A stretch of 64,000 nucleotides of DNA from Octopus vulgaris. Lineage: Eukaryota. The translations under genes and the position numbers were made by a program. Where the stretch lies: positions 169,570,001-169,634,000 of the forward strand of contig OX597814.1 of assembly GCA_951406725.2 (NCBI GenBank), in the 5' to 3' direction. This document shows positions 956 to 60,700 of the stretch, one piece after another; within the stretch, counting starts at the first letter, position 1, and each line of letters starts with the position of its first letter. The notes under the pieces were generated by a model. The model did not search any database, was not told the DNA's origin, and was given only the letters and a program-made list of their open reading frames with translations.

Positions 956-957
956 TA

Positions 958-2367: not shown

Positions 2368-2509
2368 GTTGACAGCTGTTTCATAATCTGTATCCAGTTA
2401 TATCAGTGATACTAAAAAATCCAGTTGCATACCTAATTATACATATAGATGATCATATTTAAATATCTAATTGTACTGTTACAAAATCAATCAAATTATT
2501 CATCAGAAT
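2368..2509 (-). ncRNA. Type I hammerhead ribozyme-like motif with long stem II (Penelope-type)
   Basis: Minus strand: CUGAUGA-AUAAUUUG..(~100 nt)..CAGAUUAU-GAAA-CAGCUG-UC. The 8-bp base of stem II, palindromic stem III and GUC site are present. Stem I is weak (UU/AA). Confidence 0.6.
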
Positions 2510-2899
2510 GTTTCATGGCTTGTAAACATTGAGCTTTGCTAAATTTAGTTAGGTTTCCTCATTTATATAGCTGCAGATTAAGATATATCTGTTAAGCTTA
2601 TTTTGTATTATACCTTACAGTGATCAACCACTAAAGTTTGGTAAACAAATTGATGATTAATTACTTTATTTTTGATTTCACTGTTTATAACTTCTGATTC
2701 TATTCATCTTCTAATTTTTTTGTAAGTACATTCTATTTATGGGCATTCTTGCATCTGTTGAAATGAGGAAGTTTTACAGATACATTCCAAGTCTGCTGCT
2801 ATGTAATGAGGTAATCTAATTAAATTTATCAGAGTCAGATTTTTACAAGTCATGAAACATTCTAACGAGTAATCTGACTTATGTTACTGCACTATTATT

Positions 2900-3612
2900 T
2901 ACTCTATCTCGACTTGAGAAGAAGTTGCAAGTATGGAAGCAAGGTCTGTGACTCCGCTGGTATGGTCATATGATGCATATGGATGAGGACAGCCATGTAA
3001 AAAAGTGCCAATTTCTAACTGTGAAGGGAACCTGTGGAGGGAACCTGTGGAGGGAACCTGTGGTAGAGGTAGACCAAGGAAGACATGAAACGATGATTTT
3101 CGAACTTTGAGCCCCACAGAGTCAATGACTAATAGCCTTTAGCAATGTGCTGTGCTTGAGAGGACACATCAAGCCAAGTGCATCCATGCTGGTGCCATGT
3201 AAAGAACACCTTTTGACCATTGAGCCTCACAGAGGCAAAGTGGTTGAGTTCCTTTTGAGCGTTGGCTCTCATGAAGGCAATGACTGAGACCTTTGGCATT
3301 ATGTCGTGCTTGAGAGAAGACCCATCAAGCTGAGAAAAATTGCAGTCGTGGCAGACACTGGTGTCATGCAAATTGGCACCCATGCCAGTGGCACAAAAAA
3401 ACACCTCAGTGTCATACAAATGGCACCCATGCCAGTAGTACGTTAAAGCAGCAGTTACACTCTTAGAGTGGTTAGCATTAGGAAGGGCATCCAGCCATGG
3501 AAAACCATACCAAATCAGACTGGAGTCTGGTGCAGCCTTCCAGTGTGCCAGCCCAATAAAACTGTCCAATCCATGCCAGCAGGGACAACGGATGTTAAAT
3601 GATGATGATGAT
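2900..3612 (+). mobile_element. 5'-truncated RTE LINE (C-terminal ORF remnant + 3'UTR + (GAT)n tail)
   Basis: WYGHMMHMDEDS..EGTCGRGRPRKT remnant, 3'UTR motif GTTAGCATTAGGAAGGGCATCCAGC, ending GTTAAATGATGATGATG. Confidence 0.9.
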
Positions 3613-4132
3613 ATATGTGCATCTATATATATTTATACAAAATATGGGGCTTTAGTTCACAGGTGATCTAAATGATTAGGTACGCCAGGTAAGTGCTATA
3701 ACGGATTACTAGGGCTCCAAGGTTATAGCCGAGACAGTAATTATGGAGCCATTGCAGATTTCTGATATAGCGGATATATAATTGTTAAAGAGGACAACAA
3801 ACATTAAGGCAAGGCAAATATTTCAAGTCTGGTGAATTGCACAATCACTCTATTAACTGTAGAAAGCAGTATTCCAAGGTTTTCTGTGATTTTACACGAA
3901 GTCTACCTTCAAATTGACTGACAACACAGCTGCTTTGAAATTCAGACAGTTCCAAGGCTTCTTCTGTATGTGGCATGATTAAACAGTCGCATACAGAACC
4001 CAAAACATAAAAACGTCAATTAATAAAAAATATAAACATTTTCAAAAAATATAAACATTTATAAAAATATAAAGAGAAAACGATGTTTTATAGGGTGTCT
4101 ATGTACGTCTGTTGTGTGTGTGTGTGTGTGTA

Positions 4133-4180
<48 letters not shown>

Positions 4181-4191
4181 TATATATACAC

Positions 4192-4241
<50 letters not shown>

Positions 4242-4272
4242 TCATATGTATGTGTATATATACATGTACACA

Positions 4273-5118
4273 CACAAGGTGCAGTGAATATATTGTTGCC
4301 TGAATTATGTGGAAATGAAAATAATACTGACATGTTATTTTAACAGATATATTAACAAAAATTACAAAAAATATCTTGAAATACTAAAGAGTAAATTTAT
4401 TCAATAAAATCGCCATTGACTTCAACCACGGCCTCCAGATGACTTCGAAATCTCCTGCAACTATTCTGGACGTTCCCCTTGTTTAAGTTGGTAAATGCTG
4501 TTATAATCCTTGCCTTCAGTTCAACTTTGGTTTTACAAGGAATTTGGTTTGTCTCTCTGTGACCCACACATAATAATCAAAGTGGCTGCAGTCTGGAGAG
4601 CTGGGTGGCTAGATTTTAAGGGTGATGTGGTTGCAGAAATTATCTGACAGCCATGACTGGGTTCTCCTGCTTGTGTGGCATGGTGCAGAGTCTTGCTGCC
4701 AGACATAGGGTCTTCAAGCAGCCACCCTCTTCACTCAGAGCAGCACTACCGCCTCCAGGCCGCCATGTTGAGTCTGATGCCATGTGGGGAGATGAATGGA
4801 GGCATAACATTGCCATCGCTAGTGATCATTCCAAACACCATGATGTTGACTGGATGTTTGATTTTTTATCACTCTCAGTACATATTTTGGGGACAATCTG
4901 TCCTCAGATTGACACCCAAACATGTGAAATGTTTGTATTAGAACCTCTGGTGCAAATATCAAGCATGTCATTTCCAAATTTCTGGTAGAGTGAATTGCAT
5001 TATGGTGGCATTTTTCTCACAGACAGTGCCCAGCTGACTCTAAGTAGTTGACAAAATCAAAAACAATACGTGAAATTAAGAATATAAAATGGTAACAATT
5101 TAGCCATTTCACCCTGTA
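4273..5118 (-). mobile_element. Internally deleted Tc1/mariner DD37D (maT)-type transposon
   Basis: Imperfect TIRs (CAAGGTGCAGTGAATATATTGTTGCC / GGTAACAATTTAGCCATTTCACCCTG-TA). Transposase remnants QQDSAPCH..SPDCSHFDYYVW. Homologous to 36750-37685. Confidence 0.85.
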
Positions 5119-5199
5119 TATGTAAATATAAAAATTCTTTTATTCTTTTATTTGTTTCAGTCATATGACTGTGGCCATGCTGGAGCACGTATATGGAGA

Positions 5200-5445
5200 C
5201 ACCTGGCTTAGGGGTTCAGGTGTTATACTCATGATCATAAGACTGACGTTTCAATCTTTGGATCAGGCAATCTGTAGTGATCTTGAGTAAAACACTTCAT
5301 TTCATATTAGTCCAGTCCACTCATCTGGCAAAAGTTGGTAAGCCTGCAATGGACTGGTTTTCCATCCAGGGTGGGGGAAGATTGTTTCCGGAAACCAGGA
5401 AACCATCTTCATGAACCTATGGCAGAGGGAGTACCTTTGATCCCT
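5200..5445 (+). mobile_element. tRNA-derived SINE family C, decayed, with V-like tail motif
   Basis: CTTGAGTAAAACACTTCATTTCATATTAGTCCAGTCCACTC core followed by CCTGCAATGGACTGG..CCATCCAGGGTG. Confidence 0.55.
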
Positions 5446-6244
5446 TTTTTCTTGATGTTCATACACACACATACATATGATGAGTTATTGCACTAAATTT
5501 CCCTCATGTTTTTTTTACTCAGTATTGAGTAACTCAATACAAAGCTATAGTTGAAAGGGCACTTTTTGAAATCACCATATAGAAGAATTGAACCTAGAAC
5601 TATATGGTAATGAAAGGAATTTCTTAACCACGCAGCGATATATTTAAAAGGAAAAATAATAAATAACAGCAAAACAAAAAAAAAAAAGAAAAATCAAAAG
5701 AAGAAAGAAAAGGAAAAGGAAATACGAGGACAAGAAGTTTACAGCTAGATCACCTCTAATTCTAAGTCTGCTTCAGCAAGGCTGACCTGAGGCTGATCAA
5801 CAACTATGACAGTTATTCCGACTAATTCTATCAGCACCACGCCAAGATTAGAGTCTCTATGAATGAACTACGAATGGTATTACAGAATATAGTCACAAGT
5901 TTTATTGCTACTACGTGAGCAGCCTAAACCCAGGCAGTCTTTCAGTCTGATTTGGTTAACAAATATTTATTGCAAACATTATATTGTCAGCCTGAAGAAA
6001 CGTATACAAATATATAAATCAAAAATTTACTTTAATGAAATTTCAATATTTCTGTTTGAATCTCAGGCATTTTTGTTTTCTTCTTTTCTCTCGTCACAGT
6101 TAGGTTATTAGTTAGGTTACTGTGAGAAATTTTTCACCTTGTTTATACAGACACTCACACTGTCTCTCTTTCTGTATGTTATATACATACACAGAATAAT
6201 ACAAAAAATATATATGTATGTATATGTATATATATGTGTTGATG

Positions 6245-6417
6245 TTAGCCACTACACACATTTTTTTTCTCTCCTTGTTTTTTCTGAGTACCTATCTGTA
6301 AAAGAGCGTAGGCTCGAAATGTAAAAGACTTTTTCTATTCCTGAGCATTATACTCATACATCTGTTTGTTTTGTACACCACCTGTGTTCGTCTTTTGTTT
6401 ATTTTCGTAAACTTTCC

Positions 6418-6420
<3 letters not shown>
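6245..6420 (+). mobile_element. Short hammerhead-bearing element, family b (Penelope pLTR-like), abutting (TA)n
   Basis: Homologous to 15257-15440 in opposite orientation. Motif at 6292-6327: CTGTAAAA-GAGC-GTAG-GCTC-GAAA-TGTA-AAAG (decayed). Confidence 0.65.
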
Positions 6421-6474
<54 letters not shown>

Positions 6475-6619
6475 TTGATAGATAGATATACATACATATA
6501 TATGCACATACATATTTACATATATATATATATATATATATACATAAATAAATATATATGTGTGTATAATGGAAGGCAAGGTTTACGATATCGGGAGAAT
6601 ATTGCCTTCTCCCATTAAA

Positions 6620-7200: not shown

Positions 7201-7504
7201 TAAGAAATTAAATAAATGACAAAGGAATATAAATCATGTAATGAACTTCATTAGCTCACAGCTGTTTCTGCTATATGATGCAGTGCACTCTTAACTGAGT
7301 GTTTGTATGTCACCTTATAACTGTGTTAGTGTTTCAGAAATAAAGTGCAATTTTCTGAGGCACTTTGCAAAAAAAAATATATATATATATATAATGTTTG
7401 AAATGGAGTACAGAGTTTGAATGATAAAAGCTACTCCTAAAAATATGTATTTGAATATGAATGTGTGTATATAGACAGGTATATGATGAACTCCTATATA
7501 AACT

Positions 7505-7603
7505 TACATTATTTACATTTGACGGATATTTGTCCTCATTTTTGTCTCATATTTGTCGAATGTAAATAATGTACATAATTCCTCATCTCTTAAATATAGA
7601 ACT
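7505..7603. repeat. Fold-back remnant of the 3' end of the tRNA-hammerhead element (family a)
   Basis: TACATTATTTACATTTGAC...GTCGAATGTAAATAATGTA inverted pair plus CATAATTCCTCATCTCTTAAATATAGAACT tail, matching 28684-29066. Confidence 0.8.
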
Positions 7604-7873: not shown

Positions 7874-7910
<37 letters not shown>

Positions 7911-8714: not shown

Positions 8715-8865
8715 AACAAAACTGTCCGACGAATGGGAACATGAAACTCTGAGTAAGAGCTTTTGTTATATTTCTGCTGCTTTTAAATGAAGCATATTAC
8801 TCTACCCCTGGTATTTGAGTATTCTTTTTTCCACTTTGTTTCACATTTATGTGCTTACTCCGGTA
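8715..8865 (+). mobile_element. Short hammerhead-bearing element, family d
   Basis: Homologous to 36522-36740. Motif CTGT-CCGACGA-ATG-GGAA-CAT-GAAA-CTCTGAG-TA at 8722-8760. Flanked by (TA)n-rich sequence. Confidence 0.7.
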
Positions 8866-8896
<31 letters not shown>

Positions 8897-13904: not shown

Positions 13905-14545
13905 TACATACTGGTGACACATAAAAGACACCCATGCTGGTGACACTTAGAGGGCATCCATTACATTCTTGAAGTGGCTTGCATTAGGAAGGGCATCCAG
14001 CTGTAGAAATAAAACAAAAATCAGGCTGGAACCTAGCACAGCTCTCTGGCTTAGCAGTTCCACTCACATTATCTAACTAATGCCAGCATGGAAAACAGAT
14101 GCTAAATGTTGCTGCTGTTGCTGATAATATATATACATACATACATATATACATATATATATATATGGCTTCTGTGCCGGTGGCACATAAAAAGCACCAT
14201 CCGAACGTGGTCGATGCCAGCGCCGCCCCGACTGGCTCCTGTGCCGGTGGCACATAAAAAGATCATCTGAACGTTGCCGAACGTTGCTTGGCTGGCTGCC
14301 GTGCCGCTGGCACGTTAAAAGCTCCAACCGATCGTGACCGATGCCGGAACCCCCCCTGGCACCTGTGCAGGTGGCACGTAAAAAGCACCCACTACACTCA
14401 CAGAGTGGTTGGCGTTAGGAAGGGCATCCAGCCGTAGAAACTGGAGCCTGGAGCAGCCCCTGGCTTCCCAGACCCCGGTCAAACCGTCCAACCCGTGCTA
14501 GCGCGGAAAACGGATGTTAAACGATGATGATGATGATGATGATAT
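13905..14545 (+). mobile_element. Two adjacent RTE 3'UTR copies (13905-14125 old; 14166-14545 young)
   Basis: TTAGGAAGGGCATCCAGC motif twice, GGTGGCACATAAAAAGCACC modules, (GAT)n tail. Confidence 0.9.
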
Positions 14546-14643
14546 ATATATAATAAGTGTAGATCGTATACGAGTGGGTATATATTTATAAAAAAGAAGC
14601 TTGAAAATGCCACTATATAAGATAAATATTAATCTTCTTAGAA

Positions 14644-14689
14644 ATTTTATGTTTTGGTTCTTCTTGAAAAAACGAACCTTATCAAAAAT
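14644..14689 (-). ncRNA. Decayed hammerhead-like motif with U3-A8 core variant
   Basis: Minus strand: AUUU-UUGAUAA-GGUUC-loop-GAACC-AAAA-CAUA-AAAU. The G of GAAA is lost, consistent with CpG decay. Confidence 0.4.
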
Positions 14690-14791
14690 ATTTTAAAAAG
14701 TTAAGTGTAATAAAAAAGTTCATAATTGTTTCTTACTGGTCTCAACAGAATCCACGTGGTGGTGTTTTGTTTTATTTATATATATATATAA

Positions 14792-15088
14792 ATAGTCAAT
14801 CCAAACAAGAACAAACAAGAAAAAAACAACAAACGGGGATGTGGTACAAGTACTGTGTTATTGGATGCTCAGGAAAGGAAAGAAAAGAAAGAGGATTTTT
14901 TGAGCAGAGCTCTTCATCAGAAATATAGAAAAATCCAAAGAAGAGAAGAAGAGAAAGAAAATCGTCAATGATACATACACAGGAAATCTTCTTTCTTTTC
15001 TTTCCTTTCCTGAGCATCCAATAACACAGTACCTGTACCACACCCTTGCACTGTTTTTTTTTTTTGTTCTTGTTTGGATTGACTATAT
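14792..15088 (-). mobile_element. Hammerhead-bearing element, family c, with inverted terminal arm
   Basis: Arms 14792-14892 and ~14995-15088 are inverted. Minus-strand motif UUU-CUGAUGA-A-GAGC-UCU-GCUC-AAAA at 14895-14923. Homologous to 49880-50075 and 60490-60700. Confidence 0.75.
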
Positions 15089-15194
15089 ACCACACGCTCA
15101 CACAGACGCTGGCCTTCTAACTGACTTTGGGGTACCTAATTCCTGGAATTCTTGTATCTCTGGATTACTGTTCCTGTTCATTCAAATTATGCCA

Positions 15195-15233
<39 letters not shown>

Positions 15234-15256
15234 TATATATGTATATATATATATAT

Positions 15257-15440
15257 AGGGAGAATTCACAAAAAAACAAAAGACGAAGACAGGTGGTGTA
15301 GAAAACAAACAGATGTATTAGTATAACGCTTGGGAATTGAAAAAGTCTTTAACGTTTCGAGCCTACGCTCTTCCACAGAAAGGAACACAGAAAGAAACAA
15401 GGAGAGAAAAAAAATGTGTGTAGTGGCTAGTGATCTATCA
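15257..15440 (-). mobile_element. Short hammerhead-bearing element, family b
   Basis: Minus strand 15347-15382: CUUU-CUGUGGA-A-GAGC-GUAG-GCUC-GAAA-CGUU-AAAG. Stems I and II are perfect, with A6U in the core. Flanked by (TA)n. Confidence 0.75.
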
Positions 15441-17262
15441 AGTATATATAAATATATATAAATTTTTTACCAGTTCAAATATGCAAGGGGATATTTGAAC
15501 TTGTAAGAAAGCCATTCACTGTAGTTTTGTCATGGAGAAAAATTCTCGCTGCAGACAAAAAAGTGTAAACACACCAAGTCAGCCTGGAGCACCTCCTACC
15601 TAGATCAATAGATGAATGGATTTTGGAGTTGTTATCTTCTCTTCAGCATCGAATACTTGAAAGGGCAGCACTACAAACTAACAATGAGAGACTGGATCCC
15701 TCTTATAATCCCAAGTATTATGACTGGTTGTGCTAATGAACAGCCTGACAATAATAAAGTACAGATTTAAAATGCTAAGCAGTGATGTGTACAAACATGA
15801 ACTTGTTTCCAGTTCAAATATGCTTGAGATATATTCAGACCTGTAGGACTTGGGTCAAAGGAAGGGCTTAATGAAAGCAGTGGGAAAGAGAGAAATAGGA
15901 TGATGGAATAGAGAGAAGAGATGAGAAGTACATTAAGAAGTGAAAATGACCTGTTGAACTTCTTTAAGTACTTCTGATTTTAATATTATTATAAACAGGT
16001 TGTTAGCCAATTCATTAATGTTAGAACTTTGGAATCATCCTGTATCAACACCATCTTCATTTTATGTCCACTTTTCATGCTGACATATGTAGGTCTCTTC
16101 AATAGCATTCAACTAGCCTTCAAATGTTGGCATGATTCAAATTTTGGCATGATTTCTAAGTCCGAATGACCCTTCTAACACCAACCAACTTACTGAGTGT
16201 ACTGGTTATTTTGTTAACATTTTTATGACACCAGCCTTATAGAGGTTGTCTTGGGATCAGCAGGACAAAAGAGCCCACTTGAGTTATGTACTGTCATTGT
16301 TCAGATTGATTACCAAACATTTAGAGTGTATACGGAGCTTTTTATGGCACCAGCATTGTAGGGGTTGCCTTGTAGGTCGCAAAGCTAAAGAGAGCACCCC
16401 ATGATGTAAAAGAACAGATTTATTCTGAGAGGGTGGGTATGGAGAGAATAACAGAAGGGAAAAGTGTTGCAGTGGGAGAATAGAAGACAGAAGAATGAAA
16501 GTGGGGGAGTGCTGTTAGGGATTAGTGTGAAGGAGAGGAGGGGACAATGTGGGAATGGTATTGGGGTGTGTTAAGATTTTTGAATCATCTTGTATGTATG
16601 CGTATACACACAGATGCACACATACACACACACACACACACATATATACACACAGATATACTTACATGTAAAGTTACTTGAAACATGTTTATCTATAAGA
16701 ATGTAAAGAAATTTTTCTTTTATGCTTCATCACATACTTGTATATACAGCATTGTTTTCTTAAGCCTATTGTTTGTTTTGTAATCTATTTTTGATTTTAC
16801 TTTCTTATGAATATTATTTGCACTTGTATATTGCAGATTTATGTACATGGAATTATGTACGTATGTTTAATGTATTGCTTACTTGTGTATATTATATTGT
16901 TTATTCATATGCATATTATTTATTTAAGCCTATACTTTATTTATGCACATATTTATATATGCATACTGGTTTTTCAAAATGTCATTTTGGTTTATTTACA
17001 TCATTCATTTGTGAACAATGGTATCATTGTTTATAAGTTTCCGCTGTCTCAGTCTTTTTTTGATCACAGCATTTCAAATGGTAAGACTTACAACAGGTGT
17101 TTTTACTTAGTTTCTGAATGTTTTCCCAAATTCTTATATCAAAGAGCAGAAAAGTTTTGTCCAAAGTTGTGTACCCTGCCATCACACATTGAGAAACTGA
17201 GCACAGATGCAACTGCACAAGCCTTTGTAAAATGGTGTTATTCTTCAACTTTTTGGAGTGAT

Positions 17263-28056: not shown

Positions 28057-28730
28057 TAAAAAATACAGAAAGTAGTTGTATACTCTGTCCCAATAATGGG
28101 CAGTAGCTGCTGCAGAGAATTTATGAGAAGTAATGGTAAAATCAGATGCTAGGATGCCAGACCTAATATGATTGCTGTAAGTGTAGATGTGCTGCCAAAC
28201 AGCAGATCTCTAACTCATCCCCAAGTGGTCAAAGAAAAATCTGGACTTTGAAGTGCTGTCATTGTATATAACATGAATCTGAGCAAATGAGGAGGCCACT
28301 ACATGGTCACCAAACCTACTAGAAACAGTATTCAAGTATCCCCCAAATAATACCCTAATATCTTAGAAAAGGATTCACTGGATAATATAATTATGGATTT
28401 CATGCCTGTTGGAAAAAGATTGGTGGGTCATGGGTGGAATGTCTTTGAACATAGTTCTGCCCAATTAGGGATAAGCTAGGGATTAAACAATAAGGACCTT
28501 GTTGGGTCATAAAGCAATGAGAGCAATAGTTATAATGCTCAGAACCATAGCTCCCATAATTCTCCCTTCTCTTCTTTAAATGCCGGTTGTATATCCAGGT
28601 AAGATTTTGATTTGCAGAAGTAATGTCAAACATTGTGAATTGGTGAAGTTGTTAAAGCATTAGATAGAATTCCTTTAGTATTTACATTATTTACATTTGA
28701 CAGATATTTGTCCTCATCTTGTTTGTTGTT

Positions 28731-28776
28731 AACACAATGTTTCGACTGATATACTTTCCAGCCTTCATCAGGTGTC
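28731..28776 (-). ncRNA. Minimal type I hammerhead ribozyme motif (family a)
   Basis: GACAC-CUGAUGA-A-GGCUG-loop-CAGUC-GAAA-CAUU-GUGUU. Stem I GACAC/GUGUU. The inferred consensus stem III is ACGU. Confidence 0.65.
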
Positions 28777-28823
28777 TTGGGGAAATTTCGAACCTGGGTT
28801 CTCATTCCTAAGGTATTTTTCGA

Positions 28824-28870
<47 letters not shown>

Positions 28871-28943
28871 TCACTGCCTGGAATCGAACTCAGAATCTTA
28901 GGGTTAGTAGCCCACGCTCTTAACCACTAAGCCATATGCTTGT

Positions 28944-28989
28944 GACACCTGATGAAGGCTGGAGGGTATATCAGCTGAAACGGGGTGTT
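28944..28989 (+). ncRNA. Minimal type I hammerhead ribozyme motif (family a), cleavage triplet mutated
   Basis: GACAC-CUGAUGA-A-GGCUG-GAGGGUAUAU-CAGCU-GAAA-CGGG-GUGUU. Confidence 0.6.
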
Positions 28990-29262
28990 AACAACAAACA
29001 AGAGGAGGACAAATATCCATCAAATGTAAATAATGTACGTAATTCCTTATCTTTTAAATATAGAACTCCTTTGGTATTTGTTTTATTGTTTGTAATCTGA
29101 GTTCAAATCCGACTGAGATCAACTATGCCTTTCATCCTTCCAAGTTTGATAAAATAAGTACCAACCCAGGGTGGTAGATGGGTGGAACTGTTAAAGAATC
29201 AGACAAGATACCTTGTGGTATTTATTCAGACTCTTGCATTTGGACAGCAATACCTGAAATAA

Positions 29263-36487: not shown

Positions 36488-36521
<34 letters not shown>

Positions 36522-36523
<2 letters not shown>

Positions 36524-36740
36524 TGGAGTAAACACATAAATGTGAAACAAAATGGAAAAAAGAGTACTCAAATACCAGTGGTAGAGTAATATGCTTTATT
36601 TAAAGCAGCAGAAAATTCAACAAAACCTGTTACTCTGAGTTTCCCATTGCCGTTCATCGGACAGTTTTTGCTAGATGAACGGCAACGGGAAACTCAGAGT
36701 AACAGGTTTTGTTGAATTTTCTGCTGCTTTAAATAAAGTA
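36522..36740 (-). mobile_element. Hammerhead-bearing element, family d, with inverted arm, in (TA)n
   Basis: About 65-bp near-perfect inverted arms 36594-36658 / 36674-36738. Homologous to 8715-8865. Confidence 0.8.
36622..36668 (-). ncRNA. Type I hammerhead-like motif (family d, CCGAUGA core)
   Basis: AAAACUGU-CCGAUGA-ACG-GCAA-UGG-GAAA-CUCAGAG-UA-ACAGGUUUU. Stem I CUGU/ACAG, GNRA-capped stem II, GUA site. Confidence 0.6.
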
Positions 36741-36749
36741 TATATATAT

Positions 36750-37685
36750 ACTGGGTGTGGTGAATAAACTGTCATCTAAATTAAGCAAAAATGAAAATAA
36801 CACTGACATCTCATTTTAACAGATATATTTACCAAAATTACAGAAAAATATCTTGAAATACTAAAGAGTAATTTTATTCAATAAAATCGCTATTAGCTTC
36901 AACCATGAACTCCAGAAGACTTCGGAATCTTCTGCATCTCTTCTGATGGTTTCCTTGTTTAAGTTGGTGAATGCTGACATACTTCTTGCCTTCAGTTCAT
37001 CTTTGGTGTTACAAGGAGTTTTGTTGATCTCTTGCTCAACTGTGCCCCACACATAATAATCAAAGGGGTTGCAGTCTGAGGAGTTACGTCACCAAATATT
37101 AGGGGGGATGTGGTCGTAGAAATTGTTTGACAGCCATGAGTGGGTTCTCATGCTTGTATGACATGGTGCAGAGTCCTGTTGTCAGACGTAAGGTCTTCCA
37201 GCAGCCACCCTCTTCACCCAGGGTAGCACTACCTCCTCCAAGCATTTGATGTAGGCATCCATGTTGAGTGTAAGGCCATGTGGGAAGATAAATGGAGGCA
37301 TAACGTCACCATCAATAGTGATCACTTGAAACACCCTGATCTTGACTGGATGTCTGATTTTTATCACTCTCGGTACATGTTTTGGGGACACAGCAAGCCA
37401 ACAGTTGTTCTGTGTGTTCACCATCTGATCTTGGCAGAAATTTTTCTCGTCTGAGAAAACCAAAGCATGTTCAGTTGGAGGGGATGCTTGAGTTTGTTCA
37501 AAAGCTTCGTAGTTTGGTCTTTCCTCTTGTCCTTGATGGCTTGAGATAAAAAAAATTGTCTCTTTCTCATCTTGTATGAGGAATACTGAACATCTTCAGG
37601 CACTACCAACCTGATAAGAAAACTCAGACACTCCCATGTCCCTGGCAATGGACCTGATTGACTTAGAAGGATTGTTGTCAATTAT
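36750..37685 (-). mobile_element. Tc1/mariner DD37D (maT) transposon, 3' portion; transposase pseudogene
   Basis: VFSDEK..QQDSAPCH..SSDCNPFDYYVWG with 37 residues between the 2nd and 3rd catalytic D. Two TGA stops and a frameshift. Right TIR begins TA-CTGGGTGTGG. Confidence 0.9.
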
Positions 37686-40967: not shown

Positions 40968-41392
40968 GAGACGAAGAGTGTGATTCGATTGTAAGATATT
41001 TTATTGGTTGAACGATATTTCAACAGTAAGCCTGTCTGTCAAGTTCAAAATAAGAAGTGATAAAAATTCAAAATTATAGAAATTTAAATGTAAAGTATAA
41101 ATAAGAGCAACCAGCATCCACACATTAATGGAATGACATCATCAGTTTTGAAGTTACAATTTTATAACAGGTGAAAAGAAAAAAGACAGAAAATATTGTA
41201 ACTTCAAAACCGATGCTGTCATTCCATCAATGTGTGGATGCTGGTTGCTCTCGTTCATACTTTATGCTTAAAATTCTAAAGTTTTAAATTTTTATCACTT
41301 CTTATTTTGAACTTGACAAAGACAGACTTACCGTTGAAATATCGTTCAACCAATAAAATATCTATTGCAATCGAATTGCACTCTTCGTCTTG
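40968..41392. mobile_element. Hammerhead-bearing fold-back element, family e (~195-bp inverted arms) in (ATT)n
   Basis: Arms 40968-41163 and 41194-41392 with a ~30-bp spacer. Each arm carries the ribozyme motif followed by AATAAA. Confidence 0.8.
41307..41349 (+). ncRNA. Minimal type I hammerhead motif with U3-A8 covariant core
   Basis: UUGAAC-UUGACAA-A-GACAG-ACUUA-CCGUU-GAAA-UAUC-GUUCAA. Perfect 6-bp stem I, palindromic AUAU stem III, AUC site. Mirror copy at 41008-41048 (-). Confidence 0.65.
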
Positions 41393-42090
41393 ACTGTTTA
41401 CCTTTGTGAAGAATTACATCGATACTTTTTAGAATATTATTATTATTATTATTATTATTATGCACCAGACAAAATGCTCTGTGCCATTTCTTCCAGCAGT
41501 GCATCCTGAGTTCAAATGTTGCTGAGGTCTTTGTCTTTTGTCCTTTTGGAGTCAATAAGAGAAGTACCAGAGTACCAGTTGAGCACTGTGGTCAATGCAG
41601 TTGATTATCCCACTCCTCCAAAATTTCATGCCATGAGCTTATTTTAGAAAGGATTGTCATCATTATTGTCAATATATTATACATAGGAGTTGATTTGGGA
41701 GAATCATTTGCAGGTTTTTACATTCTGAGGTCAGTAAAATATAGTACCAGTCATGTACTGACTTTGACTTAACTAAACTGTCTTCCAAAACGTCTTGCCT
41801 TGTGTTTATATTAGAAATAATTATATAGGGTGGTAGATTGGCAGAATTGTTTGACAACTGGTAAAAAATTGCTATGCAATATTTGTTCCAACTCTTTATA
41901 TTCTGAGTTCAAATCCAGCCTTGGTTAACTCTTCTTTTTTGGGATTCATAAAAAAATGTATCAGACAAAAACTGGGATTGATAATACTAACTAACCCATC
42001 CTGGTGTTGAACCAAAATTTGAAACAATTATTATTATTATTATTATTATTATTAGCATGGAAAGCGGATGTTAAATGATGATGATGATGA

Positions 42091-47111: not shown

Positions 47112-47246
47112 GTGGGCATGTGGCATAGTGGTTAAGAGTGCAGGCTACTAACCCCAAGATTCTGAGTTCAATTCCAAACAGTGACAATTATAATAATAAT
47201 AATAACATCGAAAAATACCTTAGGAATGAGGACCTAGGTTTGAAAT
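47112..47246 (+). mobile_element. Family a element, tRNA head only
   Basis: TGGCATAGTGGTTAAGAGTGCAGGCTACTAACCCCAAGATTCTGAGTTCAATTCC-(AAT)n-CGAAAAATACCTTAGGAATGAG. Stops before the hammerhead. Confidence 0.8.
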
Positions 47247-47541
47247 TGTGTTATACCGCTATATTTGGTGGTTATTTATGCAATGACTTTGTGGACGGTA
47301 AATGGATTGGATGTGGTACACGAGGTGCAAGAATTCCTGAAATAAACATATACACTCATTACTTATTTTTCTATCTTCAATCCCATTGTTTACATAGACA
47401 TATTTGAATATGAAACGTCGTAACTTTCGATGCTGGCTCTAGTTTCTACAGAAAACCTGTAGAGATAATTTCAAAAAGTTAGTGTGAACATATTCAGCAT
47501 AGCGAGCATAGTCAGTGTTAGCTTAATTAACATAATGAGCA

Positions 47542-48452: not shown

Positions 48453-48469
48453 TATATATATATATATAT

Positions 48470-48928
48470 AAGTTCAGCAAAATTTAGATTCAGATGAATA
48501 TGGTACTTAAGTCAAAGGCACCAGAATTTTGTATGGTATTATCCATATAAATCCATGGGGTGATTACAATCAAAATAAGTAACAAGTACATCTGAGGTAA
48601 TGTGGCACAATCGTTTCATGCTACTTCATTTTATTAAACACTGTAAGCATTACATCAGTTTTAAAATGTCGAGCAATCCTCAGCCACCTTTAGAAATTTT
48701 CCAATCAAACGGACAATGCACATTCTTATCCCTATTTCATTTGCCAACTTTATAACGAGGGTAGATATACAGACAGAGAGGTTGATTTCATTCTTAAGAA
48801 CATGATAGTATTAAATCTACTTGCTCGACATTTTAAAACTGATGTAATGCTTACAGTGTTTAATAAAATGAAGTAGCATGAAACGATCGTACCACATTAC
48901 CTCGGATATACTTGTTGCTTATTTTGAT
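48470..48928 (-). mobile_element. Hammerhead-bearing element, family g, with inverted arm, in (TA)n
   Basis: Arms 48569-48676 / 48821-48927. Minus strand 48602-48687: GUGG-CUGAGGA-UUGCU..AGCAU-GAAA-CGAUUG-UG-CCAC. The other arm retains CGAUCG-UA. Confidence 0.75.
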
Positions 48929-49014: not shown

Positions 49015-49141
49015 AGAGTTTTATATTTAACAGATGAGGAATTATGTACATTATTTACATATGGCATATTAGTTAAGAGCGTGGGCTACTAACCCCAAGA
49101 TTCTCAGTTTGATTCCAGGCAGTGACCATAATAATAATAAT

Positions 49142-49181
<40 letters not shown>

Positions 49182-49322
49182 TCAAAAAATACCTTAGAAA
49201 TGAGAACCCAGGTTCAAAATTCCCCCAAGACACCTGATGTAGGCTGGAGGGTATATCAGCCGAAACATTGTGTTAACAACAAACAAGATGAGGACAAATA
49301 TCTGTCAAATATATGTAATGTA
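49015..49322 (+). mobile_element. tRNA-headed hammerhead-tailed element (family a)
   Basis: Short inverted copy of its own 3' end (49015-49060), tRNA head, (AAT)n, hammerhead 49229-49274 GACAC-CUGAUGU-A-GGCUG..CAGCC-GAAA-CAUU-GUGUU. Confidence 0.8.
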
Positions 49323-49352
49323 TATACATATATGTAGGCATACCTCCCATTG

Positions 49353-49672: not shown

Positions 49673-49879
49673 TCCCATACATCCCATAACAGCAATGTTA
49701 CATTATGGAATTTCATAACATGGAATTTATTTCCCATTGACAACCCTGTTACACACAAAGCAATGAACATAGAAGCCTATGGGAAATATTCTTCACATTA
49801 CAAAATCTCTTGTAATATAATGTGTACAAGGACGAAACATGCAATTCCTGCCACACCCTATATATATATATTAACCACA

Positions 49880-50075
49880 TGTAGATCGTTGGTGATATTT
49901 TCCCTCCATCTTCCTTTTCTATTGGACTTACTTCCACCTCCTGTTTCTGATGAAGAGCTTTGCTCAAAATGTAAAACTACCTTTCTTTCCTTCCCTGAAC
50001 ATCTGCTAATACTTTGCATGTACCATGTCCTTGTGTTGTTGCTATTTTCTCGTGTTTGTTTTTGGGATTAACTAT
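49880..50075 (+). mobile_element. Hammerhead-bearing element, family c
   Basis: 49943-49977: GUUU-CUGAUGA-A-GAGC-UUU-GCUC-AAAA-UGUA-AAAC. Ends GGATTAAC-(TA)n. Confidence 0.7.
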
Positions 50076-50877
50076 ATATATGTGTATATATATATATATA
50101 TATTTGTATATATATATATATGTGTGTGTATATATATATGTGTGTGTGTGTGTATGTGTGGTGTTTATATATATATATATATCAAAACAGGAAGTTGAAA
50201 AATATTTTGAGATTATTTATTCACCATTACACATGTTTCATTTGCTAATAGAAACTCCAAAGTTTTAGACAGAGAAATTAAATTATACTCTGCCTACATA
50301 AATATATATATAACTATATAGTCGCCATATTTCATTCCATAACTGCTATCTCTGAGGAGCACAAGGTTATATAATCAACCTGTTATCAAACACTTCATTG
50401 AACCCCTCATGCAAAACTAATTCGTAAAATTGACCATAATGGATGTATAATACTTTACACTTCAATTGATATAAATATATATATATATATGTGAATGTGT
50501 GTATGTATATGAATGTATATATTAAGACAATACTGCTCTTGTCAAATGCCCAGAACTGTTATACATAGCATCTACATCCTTACAGATTGTCTCTTCTTTA
50601 CAGAAGATTGTGATCAGACAGTGAAACTTTACAGTCTAGAGTAATTTTAATAGATATTTAATTTAATATCCATGACTATAGACTACGTTTGCCCTCAGTA
50701 TATTTCAATATGTCATTGCACATATACACACACAAATAGTTATGTGTGCATGCATGTATGTATGTGTGTGTGTGTGTATGTGTGTGTGTGTGTGTGTGTG
50801 TGTTCATAAACACAAAGACATATACATGAATGCAGGCACACACAGACAGACAAATACACACATGGACATATATATTG

Positions 50878-53127: not shown

Positions 53128-54302
53128 AAATTCAATTTTGGGGGATTAATCGATATGCGGGTATTCTATTTCAGATAATACAAAATTAACCTAATGAGTA
53201 TATCTGACAGTAAACTCATGGTATCACTTTGCACATCACAAAATAATACTTAAAGGATATAACCAAAATTTCCAGTTGGGTATATAATATACTTCATTAA
53301 TTATATCCTACTTTAGTTAATACTTATATTTATTAAATATGAAGGAACTACACGTGTTTCAGCATTGGAAGATTACAATATATATACATATATAAATACA
53401 TATATGCTATCGTCAGATTTACAATTATTCCGACACATCTTCAGGTTCTATTTCGAAATATTTTATATCTAATTTTACATCCCTTTAAAAATAAGCAATA
53501 CAATTAAGCGTTAAAGATTAAAAATTAAGAATAAAAATTATACTTTGTAATATTAAGAATTAAAATTTATAAATTATCCATTATAAATATGAATTAGTAT
53601 ATATATCAATCATGTAAAATCAAGTATATGTCAAATACAGAATGTGAGATATAAGATTAAACATCAGAATAAAAATATCTGTGTTTAAATGTAATATATA
53701 ACAAGAAAAATTCAAATACATATCTTCCTTTTTTGCTGGTATATAATGGTGGATTGAGGAAGATAGCAGGGAACTATGGGTATTTATAGGTGAACAGTAC
53801 CAAGGTGGTGGGGGGTGGGTAATTACACTAAACATAGATTTAATTTTAAATTATCCACTATTACTTTTTTCAAATTTACCTTTATTGGGAGGTATATATA
53901 ATTTGTTGTTATATAATTTTAGTAATATTTAATTAATATATTTATTTTATTTAAATTATTGTATTATTTTTTTTTTATTTATTTATATAGTTTATTCAAG
54001 TGCTTTAGAAATAAAATTATATATAATTTTGGTTATATCCTTTAAGTATTATTTCGTGATGTGCAAACTGATACCATGAGTTTGCTGTCAGATATACTCA
54101 TTAGGTTATTTTTGTATTATCTGAAATAGAATTCCCGCATATCAATTAATCCCCCAAAATTGAATTTTATCTGATACTTTGTATATTTATAGATAAATAT
54201 ATAAATATACGATAAATAAGACCCCGAAGTACGATATGTAGATGTATATAATGCTGTAGCGTTACACCTGATTGGTTTGGAAATTTGTTTTCCCAAATTA
54301 TT
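53128..54302 (-). mobile_element. ~1.2-kb hammerhead-bearing element, family f, with ~140-bp inverted arms, in (TA)n
   Basis: Arms 53128-53271 / 54025-54167, plus a ~135-bp extension on one arm. Ribozyme at 53345-53448. No ORF. (TA)n on both sides. Confidence 0.75.
53345..53448 (-). ncRNA. Type I hammerhead ribozyme with intact core and long stem II
   Basis: GAAC-CUGAAGA-U..long imperfect stem II..-GAAA-CACGUG-UA-GUUC. Stem I GAAC/GUUC, palindromic ACACGUGU, GUA site, downstream AAUAAA. Confidence 0.7.
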
Positions 54303-55500: not shown

Positions 55501-55613
55501 CTCTTGAATGATCATGATGTTTGTTAGCAAACATCATATGATGCCATGACAGGGGTTCATGCAAACACACACATACCTACCTATCCACCTACCTACCTAC
55601 CTACCTACCCACA

Positions 55614-55644
<31 letters not shown>

Positions 55645-55645
55645 G

Positions 55646-55698
<53 letters not shown>

Positions 55699-55700
<2 letters not shown>

Positions 55701-58700
55701 TCATCATCATCATCATCATCGTTTAGCGTCCGTTTTCCATGCTAGCATGGGTTGGACGTTCTACTGGGGTCTGTGAAGCCAGAAGGCTTCATCAGGCCCA
55801 GTCAAATCTGGCAGTGTTTCTACGGCTGGATGCCCTTCCTAACGCCAACCACTCCGTGAGTGTAGTGGGTGCTTTTTACGTGCCACCCGCACTGGTGCCA
55901 GACAGAGCTGGCAAACGGCCACGAACGGATGGTGCTTTTTATGTGCCACCGGCACGAGGGCCAGGCGAGGCTGGCAACGGACACGAAACGGGGCGGTGCT
56001 GGCAACGGTCGCGAAACGGAAAGTTCTCTTACATGCCACCGGCACTGGTAACACATCTGCAATTTCCATTGATCGATTTCCATTGATCGATTTCGATTCT
56101 GATCCTCACTTGCCTCAACGGGTCTTCACAAGCAGAGTTTTGACATGCCACCGGCACTGGTAGCACATCCGCAATTTCCATTGATCGATTTCGATTCTGA
56201 TCCTCACTTGCCTCAACACGTCTTCACAAGTAGAGTTTTGTGTCTCAAGAAGGGAAGGTATGCATACGTAGGCCGGCTCCATCCCATGTAGAAGGCCACG
56301 GGTTATGGACTCACTTGTCCTGCCGGGTCTTCTCGCGCACAGCACACTTCCAGAGGTCTCGGTCTCTAGTCATTTCCTCAGTGAGACCTAAAGTTCGAAG
56401 GTCGTGCTTCACCACCTCGTCCCAGGTTTTCCTGGGTCTGCCTCTTCCACAGGTTCCCTCAACCGCTAGGGTGTGGCACTTTTTCACACAACTATCTTCA
56501 TCCATTCTCGCCACATGACCATACCAGCGCAAACGTCTCTCTTGCACACCACAACTGATGCTTCTTAGGTCCAGCTTTTCTCTCAAGGTACTTACACTCT
56601 GCCGAGTGTGAGTACCGGCATTACACATCCATCGGAGCATACTGGCTTCATTTCTAGCGAGCTTACGCATATCCTCAGCAGTCACGGCCCATGTTTCACT
56701 GCCATATAGCATGGCTGTTCGTACACACGCATCATACAGTCTGCCTTTCACTCTGTGCGAGAGGCCTTTTGTCACCAGCAGAGGTAAGAGCTCTCTGAAC
56801 TTTGCCCAAGCTATTCTTACTCTAGCAGTTACACTTTCAGCACACCCGCCCCCGCTGCTGACTTGGTCACCTAGGTAACGGAAACTATCAACTATTTCTA
56901 GTTTTTCTCCCTGGAAAGTGACGGAAGTTGGTCTCAGAGCATTTTCAGTGTTTATTGTTCCTGAGCATCTGCCACATACAAAAACCATCTTCCTAGTTAG
57001 CCTTCCTTTGACATTGCTGCATCTCTTATGTGTCCATAGCTTACACTTGGTGCATCTTATAGAGTTTCTACCTACACCTTTTCTACAGATCGAGCAGGGC
57101 CATCTACCTGAAGGTGTTTATGATTTGTCTACCTTCCTACTGATTACGACTTTGGTTTTAGCTAGATTGACTCTGAGGCCCTTCGATTCTAATCCTTGTT
57201 TCCACACCTGAAACTTCTCCTCCAGTTCTGATAGCGACTCAGCAATTAGAGCAAGGTCATCAGCATAGAGGAGCTCCCAAGGGCATCCTGTCTTGAATTC
57301 CTCCGTTATTGCCTGGAGGACTATGATAAATAGGAGGGGGCTGAGTACTGAGCCTTGGTGGACTCCTACCTCTACCCGGAATTCTTCACTGTACACATTT
57401 CCAACCCTCACCCTACTAGCGGCGTCCCTATACATGGCCCGCACAGCTCTCACTAACCATTCATCTATCCCTAGTTTCCTCATTGCCCACCAGATAAGGG
57501 ATCGGGGGACCCTGTCGAAGGCTTTCTCCATGTCAACAAAAGCCAGGTACAGGGGCTTATCTTTGGCTAGGTATTTCTCCTGCAGCTGCCTTACCAGGAA
57601 TATAGCATCAGTAGTACTTTTCCCTGGCACAAACCCAAACTGCATCTCATCTAAACTAACTCTCTCTCTAATTAGTTGGGCTATGACCCTCTCCGTAACC
57701 TTCATCACCTGGTCCAACAGCTTGATACCTCTGTAGTTATTTGTATCTAGGGCATCAGCTTTACCTTTGTAGCAGTTGACTATTATACTGCTACACCAGT
57801 CATTGGGTATGACCCCTTTGTGTATCACCTGATTAACTATACGGGTGACTAGGCTATAGCCGACACTACCAGACATTTTGAGCATCTCTGCAGTGATTCC
57901 TGATGGGCCTGGGGCTTTCCCTGTCTTCATGCTTCTAATTGCCTTAGCTACCACGGAACTATCAACTCGGATAGCTGGTCCCTCTGTTGGGTCAACATTC
58001 GGCAGACTCTCTTTATCCCATTCATTTTCTTCATTCAGCAACCTTTCATAGTGGCATCTCCAAACCTCTCTCTTTGCATCCTCATTTAGCGCAAGTGAAC
58101 CATCTTCCATGCGAACACACTTCTCTCCTACCACATCACGATTCTCTCTCACACACTGTCTTGCAACATGAAACACCTCCAGTCTTTGGTCCTCACGGCA
58201 CAGAACATTGGCAAATTTTTTCTTATCTGCTTCCCCTCTGGCTAAATAAACCTGTCTCCTAGCTTCTCTTTTGGCAGTCTGATACAATCCCCTGCTACCC
58301 CCATTTTTCCAGACCTTCCAAGCCTGTCTCTTTTCTCTAATAGCCCTGTCTACAATATTGTTCCACCACCACGTTATTCTAGGTCGAGAGGGGACTTTGC
58401 ACCAGCCACAGATCTGGTCAGTGGCTCTCAGCAGGTTGTCCCTTAGAAACGTCCAGCTGTCTTCTACCCCCTGTGATGCTCTATCCCCTTCTACTTCGTC
58501 AGAGGCTTCAAGTAATATGTCCCTAAATCTCTGTCCATTTGCAGGATCTTTAAGCTTCCAGATCCTTCTTCTCCATATTTGTCGTCTTCTGGTTGTCCTC
58601 CTAGTCCTGATCCTAAAGTCACTAACTACCAGTCTATGTTGTGGGGTACATTCTTCACCTGGGAAGGTTTTGGCATTTATAAGCAGCCGTCTCTCCCTTT

Positions 58701-59433
58701 GCCTTGTAAGGATGTAGTCAATTTGGCTGGTATGTTGGCCCGATTGGTAAGTGACTAGGTGGCTGGTAGGTTTCCTGAAGTTAGTGTTGCAAATCATAAG
58801 ATTATTTGCATCGCAGAACTCCAGCAGCCTGGTTCCCTCCTCGTTGCGGGAGCCATAGCCATAGCCTCCATGTACGCCATGGAAGCCCCCAGCATGTCGT
58901 CCAACGTGACCATTGAAGTCACCAGCCACAAAGATAAGGTCTCTGTCGTTCGTCAACGAGGTAGTCTGCAGTAGAGTGTCATAGAATTGGTCTTTCTGTC
59001 CATCGGGTAGCCCCGACTGAGGAGCATAGGCTGATATAATGGTTGCTAAACTATGATGAAGCACTAATCTAATCTTAAGTATTCTGTCACATACTCTGAT
59101 TACCTCAATTACTTTATCTACCCATTTCTCAGCGATAAGTATACCCACGCCACCAACCCCGTCAGTGTTCCCTGCCCAGAAAATCTTGTACCTGCGTTCC
59201 TTGCCTGTGAGGAATCTAGCTGATCCTCCTCTCCACCTTATTTCTTGCATGCAACATATATCCACACATCTCCGTTCAAGCATCTCAACTATCTCACCAG
59301 ACCTACCTTTCAGAGTGCCAACGTTGAGGGTGCCAACCCTGAGGGTGTGGGAGGCATGGGCTCTAGAGACCCTGGGACGGTGGACAGTAGCTTCGTGTAC
59401 CTGAAAAGAAAGCTCGCCTTTGGCAGAATTCAT
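55699..59433 (-). mobile_element. Young, near-complete RTE-clade LINE inserted in (TA)n
   Basis: Single ~3.1-kb reading frame, ~600-bp modular 3'UTR, (GAT)n tail, (TA)n on both flanks, CpGs retained. Confidence 0.97.
56311..59433 (-). pseudogene. RTE ORF: APE endonuclease + reverse transcriptase + PHD finger, with one in-frame TAA at 57118-57120
   Basis: APE motifs GTLNVGTL, MQEIRW, SAYAPQ, AGDFNGHVG, SQIDYIL, QHRLV. RT motifs NYRGIKLL, QFGF, FVDMEKAFDRV, GVHQGSVLSPLLF, YADD. CSIC-CTKC-HKRC-CGRC finger. The two track ORFs are in one frame, 43 sense codons apart. Confidence 0.95.
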
Positions 59434-59435
59434 GT

Positions 59436-59490
<55 letters not shown>

Positions 59491-59519
59491 AATAAACATA
59501 TAAATATACATATATATAA

Positions 59520-59873
59520 AATTAAGATTCAGTTGAATTAGGTACTTAAGTTGAAGCACCAAGTCAGTCCGGTATTGTCCACACAGCTTGAAGTAAGGTG
59601 AATAAAAAGCAAATAAGTAACAAGGATGTCCAAGTATTAGTGCATTATGGTTGTTTCAAGTGGCTTCATTTAATCGCTCAATGCAAACAATACATCACTT
59701 TGAAATAAACCGCTCTCCTCAGAAGTATGCAACCATATAGAATTCCAACATACAGAATACTCCATTATAATTTTTTAGCAAACTTTTCATCAGTACTAGA
59801 GACTAAAATAATTGGAGCCACTTGAAATAGCTGTAATGCACTGATACATGGACATCCTTGTTACTTATTTGCT

Positions 59874-59877
<4 letters not shown>
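59520..59877 (-). mobile_element. Hammerhead-bearing element related to family g, with inverted arm, in (TA)n
   Basis: Arms 59607-59668 / 59813-59874. Minus strand 59641-59731: CUGAGGA-GAGCGGUUU..AAGCCACUU-GAAA-CAACCA-UA-AUGCA. The other arm has GAAA-UAGCUG-UA. The terminus ACTTAAGTACC..CTGAATCT is shared with 48480-48520. Confidence 0.7.
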
Positions 59878-59915
<38 letters not shown>

Positions 59916-59934
59916 AAATAAATAAATAAATAAA

Positions 59935-60231
59935 TCCAAACTTACAGGGAAAAATCAGATTTAGGATTGAATTCAATTTTATAGTAAAATATTATATTAT
60001 ATTAAATTAGAGATAAAACCACTATTAGACAAATCATACAATGAAAAACTTAAGCCAATACATAAGATTAATTAATTTATATTATTTTAAATATATATCA
60101 AAATTATTAAAAAAATAATAATTTTAATAATTTTGATATATATTTAAAATAATATAAATTAATTAATCTTATGTATTGGCTTAAGTTTTTCATTGTATGA
60201 TTTGCCTAATAGTGGTTTTATCTCTAATTTA

Positions 60232-60241
<10 letters not shown>
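59935..60241. repeat. ~120-bp near-perfect AT-rich palindrome with one-sided extension, in (TA)n
   Basis: Arms 59993-60113 / 60122-60241. Another partial copy at 60706-60790. Confidence 0.85.
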
Positions 60242-60276
<35 letters not shown>

Positions 60277-60435
60277 CAGTTGCCCATAAATAAAAAAAGA
60301 AAACACAATCTGAAAGGTATTTTGAGCAGTTATATTTTATACTGTCAAGTAGTATACCCTTAGTTATGCCACCTAACTGGTCATAAATTTCTCATTGGTC
60401 TCAAATCTAATGCACTTTGGATGGAACTAGCACCT

Positions 60436-60475
<40 letters not shown>

Positions 60476-60489
60476 CAAACATCAAAATG

Positions 60490-60700
60490 TGACCGCATGT
60501 GTACCGTTGGCGATTTTTTTCCTCTGTCTTCCCTTCGTTGGATCTTTCCTTTTCCTATGTTTCTGACAAAGAGCTCCACTCAAAATGTTAAATCCTCCTT
60601 CTTTCCTTCCTTTCCTGAGCGTCCAATAACACTATACTTGTTCTACGTCCTCACGTTGTTGTATTTTCTCTTTGTGTTTTCATGTTTGGATTAACTATGT
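60490..60700 (+). mobile_element. Hammerhead-bearing element, family c (decayed core)
   Basis: 60559-60593: GUUU-CUGACAA-A-GAGC-UCC-ACUC-AAAA-UGUU-AAAU. Flanks homologous to 14792-14990 and 49880-50075. Confidence 0.7.

Follow-up and report, generated by a model that had tools for sequence, protein, structure and literature searches.

What are the many hammerhead-like motifs that lie in a single 64,000-nt stretch of the Octopus vulgaris genome (assembly GCA_951406725.2, contig OX597814.1, positions 169,570,001 to 169,634,000)? We call this whole stretch the window and count positions from its first base. Our answer is that the sites are very probably short 3′ ends, mostly decayed, of Penelope-like elements (PLEs) from at least nine families whose family versions have a minimal hammerhead fold. 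The reverse transcriptase (RT)-endonuclease of the element is likely to have written them into AT-rich DNA from uncleaved RNA. The pattern is dense, real and mostly known, namely truncated PLE ends with minimal hammerheads. Two variants stand out, a family headed by a tRNA-like sequence (F) and a lineage with a fixed A6U core (B), and both go beyond what the preliminary description of the window had singled out.

That description gave 18 coordinates. Motif-like sequence is present at all 18, but the positions given are mostly the left edge of the motif. We grouped the sites as A (2368), B (6292/15347), C (8722/36622), D (14644), E (14895/49943/60559), F (28731/28944/49229), G (41008/41307), H (46005), I (48602/59641), and J (53345). 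Nine of these (A–G, I, and J) are families with 93 to 3,658 first-look candidates each in the genome, and they cover 16 of the 18 sites. Counting 59641 as a relative of I, 17 sites are in multi-copy families. Site 59641 is a diverged relative of I (68% to 48602 and 74% to a hammerhead in another locus, L189). H was rejected as a family, as a genome search with 46005 matched only itself. At least eight families had been proposed; nine are multi-copy in the genome, but the single-copy 46005 is not one of them.

Could the motifs be chance matches in AT-rich repeats? The window has a G+C content of 36% and contains many microsatellites and short interspersed elements (SINEs). We used a strict descriptor with the canonical core and a variant descriptor that also admits U3-A8, U4C, and A6U. 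The strict descriptor found 0–1 matches in the window. The variant descriptor found three (15378−, 41313+, 53444−), compared with a mean of 0.17 and a maximum of 1 in 30 shuffles. That just three window copies pass a descriptor speaks for chance, and for 46005 the chance explanation holds. In a sample of 80 stretches of 10 kb (800 kb) at round coordinates on C1–C22, however, the variant descriptor found 45 matches versus 1–5 in shuffles, and the strict one 22–26 versus 0–4 (five shuffles), so that the proposed comparison with shuffled sequence came out in favor of real motifs in both data sets. Family majority lines also fit better than single copies, and the 3-8 pair shows a compensated swap. 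Chance is refuted for the nine families, and we give it practically no weight.

When decayed copies are included, the 800-kb sample contains 86 motif-spanning matches, a few of them counted twice. This is about one per 10 kb, and a rough extrapolation to the 2.8-Gb genome gives 2.5–3 × 10^5 copies. The window contains about 19–20 motifs, or one per 3–4 kb. The first estimate of one per 4 kb therefore stands for the window, but this is about three times denser than the sample, and the search library is biased toward window families. With all loci pooled, the variant descriptor gave 262 matches in 43 clusters, 20 of them multi-locus and at least two spurious; across about 40 clusters the stems pair despite differing sequence, although pairing is partly built into the descriptor. 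Rfam gave no hammerhead match at gathering score in the window and six loci, and microsatellite microRNA models filled the best 150 of the 249 rows of an E-value scan. The expectation that such elements would be missed is thus right for Rfam but not for descriptor searches, which in 2014 found solo and opposite-strand motifs of this kind in many animals (PMC4209133).

Most window copies are broken and no longer fit a ribozyme descriptor. The statement that the families keep the core is true of the majority lines, which were made from 11–69 aligned copies. For every one of the nine families but A they restore the full type I fold, with core, stems, and palindrome back in place where window copies are broken. 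In family A the core is canonical too, but it lies some 128 nt 5′ of the GAAA (pattern in 5 of 16 copies, one of them counted twice in a local repeat). In both A and J the core is 100–130 nt away from the GAAA across a long stem II loop (A, 2500–2506; J, 53438–53444), and a reading of A without G8 and A9 was rejected, as the core lies further upstream. Family A is old, with identities of 72–91%. Family C is 176 nt long and starts just 5′ of stem I, and its top copies are 97–98% identical.

The core is canonical in A, F, I, J, and about half of E, U3-A8 in D and G, and A6U in B; U4C is found in C and in 38 of 74 E copies. The 3-8 pair has swapped jointly from C-G to U-A in D and G. Stems I and II pair in all nine families and stem III is short and palindromic, with one unpaired middle base in C. 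The palindromes reported earlier (ACGU, AUAU, CAGCUG, CGAUCG, and CACGUG) are indeed stem III of majority lines, with self-duplex energies of +1.6 to −10.3 kcal/mol. B, E, and F share a G10.1-C11.1 pair together with an extra base after A9. The pair is G-C without the extra base in A and D, G-U in G, U-U in I and J, and A-G, A-A, or A-U in C. By eye, further variants were seen downstream of GIY-YIG sequences elsewhere: a motif with an A3-U8 core pair in L294, and U3-A8 motifs with GCAA replacing GAAA in L289 and L295.

Are these ends of coding elements? The window encodes no PLE protein, in agreement with the absence of a PLE open reading frame (ORF) noted before: the best tblastn match with seven PLE peptides had an E-value of 0.75, and two further peptides gave none at E 1e-3. 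As for the suggested search for the same termini on PLE ORFs, other genomic copies of B, D, E, G, I, and J continue into sequence that codes for a Penelope-like RT or GIY-YIG. A D-type end lies downstream of GIY-YIG in 20 of the 30 loci cut out, including 781-aa RT + GIY-YIG frames; this D-linked protein is above the Pfam cut-off for GIY-YIG and just under it for RVT_1. A Pfam GIY-YIG search of the genome gave 148 matches, 16 of them within 781-aa frames. Endonuclease-domain matches were found in 11 of 19 other family G loci, where most of them stop some 100 nt short of the query stretch, and in L196 the Pfam GIY-YIG match is above cut-off. A PLE protein lies upstream on the same strand in 11 of 30 longer B copies, and an endonuclease-like C-terminus is reached in 2 of 20 longer I copies. 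Longer E copies have a CA-rich untranslated region or leader of more than 1 kb, which in one of the 25 extends as far as a GIY-YIG-type endonuclease end. In two J loci an RT-like frame is directly downstream of the motif region. The I- and J-linked frames are assigned to PLEs by motifs typical of these elements; Neptune-like and Nematis-like are tentative clade labels.

Since these six families continue into PLE coding sequence, they are 5′-truncated element ends and not dedicated passengers. Passengers or terminal remnants had both been suggested. Remnants are the main answer, and a non-autonomous element is shown for F alone. The assignment to minimal type I hammerheads of several Penelope-like lineages was right. 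Two coding elements were seen along the way. L304–L308 contain a young D-lineage PLE with two frames, in which the 781-aa RT + GIY-YIG frame follows an overlapping upstream frame of up to 479 aa in another reading frame and with no clear Pfam family. L071 (9284–10000, minus strand) belongs to a PLE family in which 40 of 150 listed endonuclease pieces are 100% identical; this copy has no canonical hammerhead in 2.6 kb downstream, where one weak non-canonical fit was found.

A different explanation is that the families are dedicated non-autonomous, retrozyme-like passengers which spread through ribozyme-cut circular RNAs. Copies of B, C, and E do mostly begin at a fixed 5′ point, and the genome has a true tandem hammerhead array elsewhere (L061, 2745–4763; 359 nt × 5.6, 98% matches, a canonical type I hammerhead in each unit), which is a typical non-LTR (long terminal repeat) retrozyme. 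The window copies, in contrast, are solo or head-to-head and never tandem, so that they are not retrozymes in the strict sense. Longer ORF-linked versions exist in six families, sequence is kept on both sides of the cut site, and no go-back joint at the cut site was present among the joints listed from RNA reads. We consider spread through circular RNAs improbable for the families as a whole, though it may still apply to C.

How, then, would truncated PLE ends have been inserted? The 3′ ends are fixed in each family, and five families have two discrete ones, which are about 83 (C), 88 (I), 19 (D), 42 (G), and 29 (F) nt apart. After head-to-head pairs had been de-duplicated and two pairs at locus edges dropped, the long end (tail) was on one arm alone in 79 of 84 pairs (F 37/41, C 24/25, I 7/7, D 5/5, G 6/6), which is a hallmark of PLEs. 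Copies retain the whole motif, and members of different families have accumulated in one another's (TA)n flanks, as with D, E, and B at 14.5–15.5 kb. The microsatellite setting described earlier holds for B, C, D, E, and I in (TA)n and for G in (ATT)n, but the (AAT)n run of F is inside the element. Frangieh et al. 2024 (PMC11167929) showed that a PLE protein from Anolis cleaves and extends each of the two DNA strands, that two internal RNA starts bound the tail, that uncleaved RNA is used, and that hammerhead mutations did not impair insertion in vitro. An inverted copy with a tail at one end was described by Craig et al. 2021 (PMC8557442).

We infer, by analogy with this Anolis PLE, that the octopus families are likely to be inserted into AT-rich DNA by an element-encoded RT-endonuclease from uncleaved RNA. 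The protein would nick both strands, and reverse transcription would start at two internal sites 3′ of the hammerhead (PMC11167929). From two start sites, a head-to-head pair would result in which just one arm has the tail, and early stops would leave remnants of 150–400 nt; the one-arm tail rule would be the genomic read-out of the two start sites. Cleavage, if any, would take place in tandem parent transcripts, where the palindromic stem III allows dimers to form; a solo insertion would not require it. Self-cleavage of the family hammerheads as dimers is a prediction from their sequences.

RNA reads were examined in two raw runs, which may come from a related species. F-like reads numbered 8,925 of 12,895,792 and 7,054 of 11,974,664, and B-like reads 2,890 and 2,626. 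The reads are in equal orientations and 71–82% of them continue into unrelated sequence, which fits read-through in host transcripts and not element transcripts. They thus show that element sequence is carried within host transcripts, but not that the elements are expressed or cleaved.

Several observations weigh against truncated PLE ends inserted in this way. The tail on one arm is not the pattern in the inverted pairs of B (0/3) and E (1/2). For monomers of B, C, D, E, and J, the structure of lowest energy is not the hammerhead. Ends of F or B reads do not pile up at the predicted cleavage site, although fragmented libraries may hide such ends. The protein assignments of I and J rest on PLE motifs and weak similarity, and the J-linked peptide has no Pfam match. 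No partner ORF was found for A, C, and F among the loci examined (F 0/30), and no search was made for long A or C copies. Finally, neither ARAGORN at default score nor the Rfam tRNA model calls any head of family F.

The copies in the window are as follows.

2196..2516, minus strand: family A, old element; hammerhead 2367–2510, canonical core 2500–2506, stem II loop about 110 nt, stem III ACAGCUGU, stem I decayed.
6214..6443, plus strand: family B copy; motif 6293–6327, core decayed with U6 retained and G8 gone.
7502..7600, no strand assigned: family F tail fragments, an inverted pair without hammerhead.
8718..8893, plus strand: family C copy of a second subfamily; motif 8721–8759, U4C core, decayed stems.
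14542..14770, minus strand: family D copy, 3′ terminus of a PLE with GIY-YIG; motif 14644–14689, U3-A8 core, GAAA and stem III broken.
14770..15089, minus strand: family E copy (14770–14978) with broken motif 14893–14924 and inverted partial arm 14984–15089; abuts D.
15233..15463, minus strand: family B copy; motif 15347–15382 fits the fold, A6U core.
28678..28940, minus strand: family F sense copy; tRNA-like head 28870–28940, (AAT)n, linker 28778–28826, hammerhead 28731–28776 (stem III mutated), short 3′ end.
28944..29066, plus strand: family F inverted 5′-truncated arm; hammerhead 28944–28989 (stem III mutated) and 29-nt tail.
36489..36743, minus strand: family C copy (36489–36668), motif 36627–36665, U4C; inverted short arm 36674–36743.
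40969..41163, minus strand: family G inverted arm; motif 41008–41048, 2 nt lost from the core.
41192..41461, plus strand: family G copy, 3′ terminus of a PLE with GIY-YIG; motif 41307–41349 fits the fold, U3-A8, (ATT)n at the end.
47116..47247, plus strand: family F head and linker without hammerhead.
48454..48928, minus strand: family I copy (48454–48820), motif 48602–48687 (position 17 is G); inverted short arm 48821–48928.
49022..49327, plus strand: family F copy; an inverted tail fragment comes first, then head 49058, linker, and hammerhead 49229–49274 with mutations in A9 and stem III.
49874..50094, plus strand: family E copy; motif 49943–49977, GAAA broken.
53128..54167, minus strand: family J copy; hammerhead 53345–53448 with canonical core fits the fold, and its long stem II has a TA-rich loop; inverted arm 54025–54167 without motif.
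59498..59874, minus strand: diverged I-related copy; motif 59642–59725 decayed, inverted arm 59809–59874.
60492..60719, plus strand: family E copy; motif 60559–60593, G8 and GAAA broken.

The D, E, and B copies at 14542–15463 are stacked end to end via (TA)n runs, and similar nesting was seen in L278, L279, L282, and L290. A 120-nt inverted repeat (99%) in (TA)n at 59993–60241 looks by eye like the tail 3′ of the hammerhead in L357 and is probably the motif-less end of a further PLE family. The sequence at 50171–50267 (minus strand) is 78% to a single-locus hammerhead match in L394, and its motif is incomplete. The window also contains a long interspersed element (LINE) at 56311–59655 (minus strand) with AP-endonuclease and RT domains (Pfam) in two long frames; this element, which we take to be RTE-like, is not a PLE. 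A 137-aa frame at 37182–37595 (minus strand) is without a Pfam match and is presumably a fragment resembling a Tc1/mariner transposase.

Do the hammerheads of these elements need to cut? Family B has U at position 6 in 72 of 76 distinct copies and A in three, where the hammerhead core has A6. Its other core positions are kept (C3 in 73/76 and G8 in 72/76), position 7 varies (G44/A13/U11/C8), and position 17 is U46/A27/G2/C1. The sister family E has A6 in 74 of 74 copies. Many of the 76 B copies were chosen by likeness to U6 queries, and in an unselected sample U6 was found in 10 of 11. A6U as a feature that arose in short non-autonomous B copies only was rejected, as long ORF-linked copies are also U6. 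In B sequences from reads of two RNA runs and contigs of two others, positions 7 and 17 vary, and no position-6 change at 8% or more was seen among the rows listed (27 further rows). Natural U3-A8, a weakly active A6C, and a viroid U4C are known, and changes of A6 strongly lower activity (Perreault et al. 2011, PMC3088659); A6C favors Mn2+ (PMC7151607, which also gives the strong effect of A6 changes). A search of the hammerhead literature for A6U or CUGUNGA found no A6U report.

The hammerhead might be kept as a structure, for example as a binding or folding signal for the PLE protein, with catalysis weak or lost in several lineages; this would account for the fixed A6U and U4C cores. The presence of U6 in 72/76 B copies and in the long ORF-linked ones, the strong effect of A6 changes (PMC3088659; PMC7151607), the unimpaired insertion of hammerhead mutants in vitro (PMC11167929), and the lack of read ends at the predicted cleavage site all suit this explanation. 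Rules of the catalytic type are nevertheless kept: the 3-8 pair changes jointly from C-G to U-A in D and G, and in B position 7 takes all four bases and G at position 17 is confined to 2 of 76 copies. We regard this explanation as somewhat unlikely, though clearly a more serious contender than spread through circular RNAs. PLE hammerheads have low activity and are dispensable in vitro. Their role can be tested directly with the sister families B (U6) and E (A6) and with the young PLE, whose 781-aa frames are intact and whose motif is U3-A8. If B is a natural A6U lineage that keeps the other ribozyme rules, this genome, which also has U4C and U3-A8 lineages, would be a natural library on whether PLE hammerheads need to cut.

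Family F raises a second question, namely what a tRNA-like sequence does on a PLE-type end. Its parts always follow one another in this order: a tRNA-like head, the (AAT)n run, a linker of 49 nt, the hammerhead, and the tail. Among 30 copies picked by linker and hammerhead alone, 19 have the head on the same strand and none runs into an ORF; the remaining 11 break in the AAT run or at the inversion. An A-like box was found in 39 of 63 heads and a B-like box in 43 of 63. ARAGORN called 5 of the 63 at 90% score (0 when shuffled) and 15 at 80% (2 when shuffled). The PLE copy in L071, considered as a partner, shows no F end within 2.6 kb, and F reads are in both orientations with no pile-up of starts.

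The head could instead be a separate SINE that repeatedly landed beside a PLE remnant, so that F would not be one element. The (AAT)n run does stand between head and hammerhead, the same-strand head is absent in 11/30 copies, and a few heads stand without a hammerhead (for example, at 47116 in the window). Yet order and orientation do not vary, the inverted arms carry the head in register, and the copies without a head are interrupted within the AAT run or by an inversion, which makes repeated landing very unlikely. F is best read as a non-coding SINE with a decayed tRNA head and a PLE end. It is likely to be a Pol III (RNA polymerase III) SINE that captured a PLE 3′ end and would borrow the same protein. 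We tentatively propose that F is a tRNA-promoter SINE driven by a PLE and not by a LINE, with tens of thousands of copies, and that B is a natural A6U lineage which keeps all other ribozyme rules; we lean slightly against both parts being right together. A literature search found no paper stating a PLE-driven tRNA SINE (repeat databases were not covered), although the hammerhead SINEs of Schistosoma come near. Such a SINE, if true, would add a partner class to SINE biology.

Minimal hammerheads of metazoan PLEs, which Lunse et al. 2016 reportedly also treats, are one known system to which the window elements can be compared. A literature search for hammerhead, Penelope, and octopus found no paper on the subject. 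One study reports 190 PLE families that make up 6.83% of an octopus genome, and its supplement has no match for 'hammerhead' or 'ribozyme' (PMC13282606); a term search of PMC10886601 found no mention of Penelope. Cervera and de la Peña 2014 (PMC4209133) described minimal PLE hammerheads that come in many families per genome, as solo copies and in opposite-strand pairs, with the U3-A8 variant among them and with low activity as dimers. Our families are alike in their type I fold with a short stem I, a tiny palindromic stem III, and, in B, E, and F, an extra base before stem II, in their many families of mostly solo copies from truncated PLEs, in the U3-A8 variant, and in opposite-strand pairs 100–700 bp apart. 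They differ in their higher density (about 2.5–3 × 10^5 copies by rough extrapolation versus thousands), in the very long stem II loops of A, I, and J, and in lineage-wide A6U and U4C cores, which are unmentioned in the part of that paper drawn on.

Endonuclease-positive PLE units (PMC8557442; PMC11167929) share with the octopus elements a C-terminal GIY-YIG, a hammerhead near the 3′ end, an inverted 5′-truncated copy, an optional tail at one end, and (TA)n targeting. The tails are about 19–88 nt here versus 30–40 nt there, and the one-arm rule was counted here (79/84). The Schistosoma hammerhead SINEs Sm-alpha and Sj-alpha (PMC6765202) resemble F in having a Pol III-type promoter followed by a hammerhead, but they are often tandem and released by cleavage, whereas F, whose hammerhead is minimal and whose ends are of the PLE type, is solo or head-to-head. 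Also non-coding, with a type I hammerhead and a proposed dependence on PLEs, are the non-LTR retrozymes (PMC7229834; Li et al. 2026, bioRxiv 10.64898/2026.07.22.740005). They are defined by tandem units and circular RNAs, however, and the window elements are not tandem.

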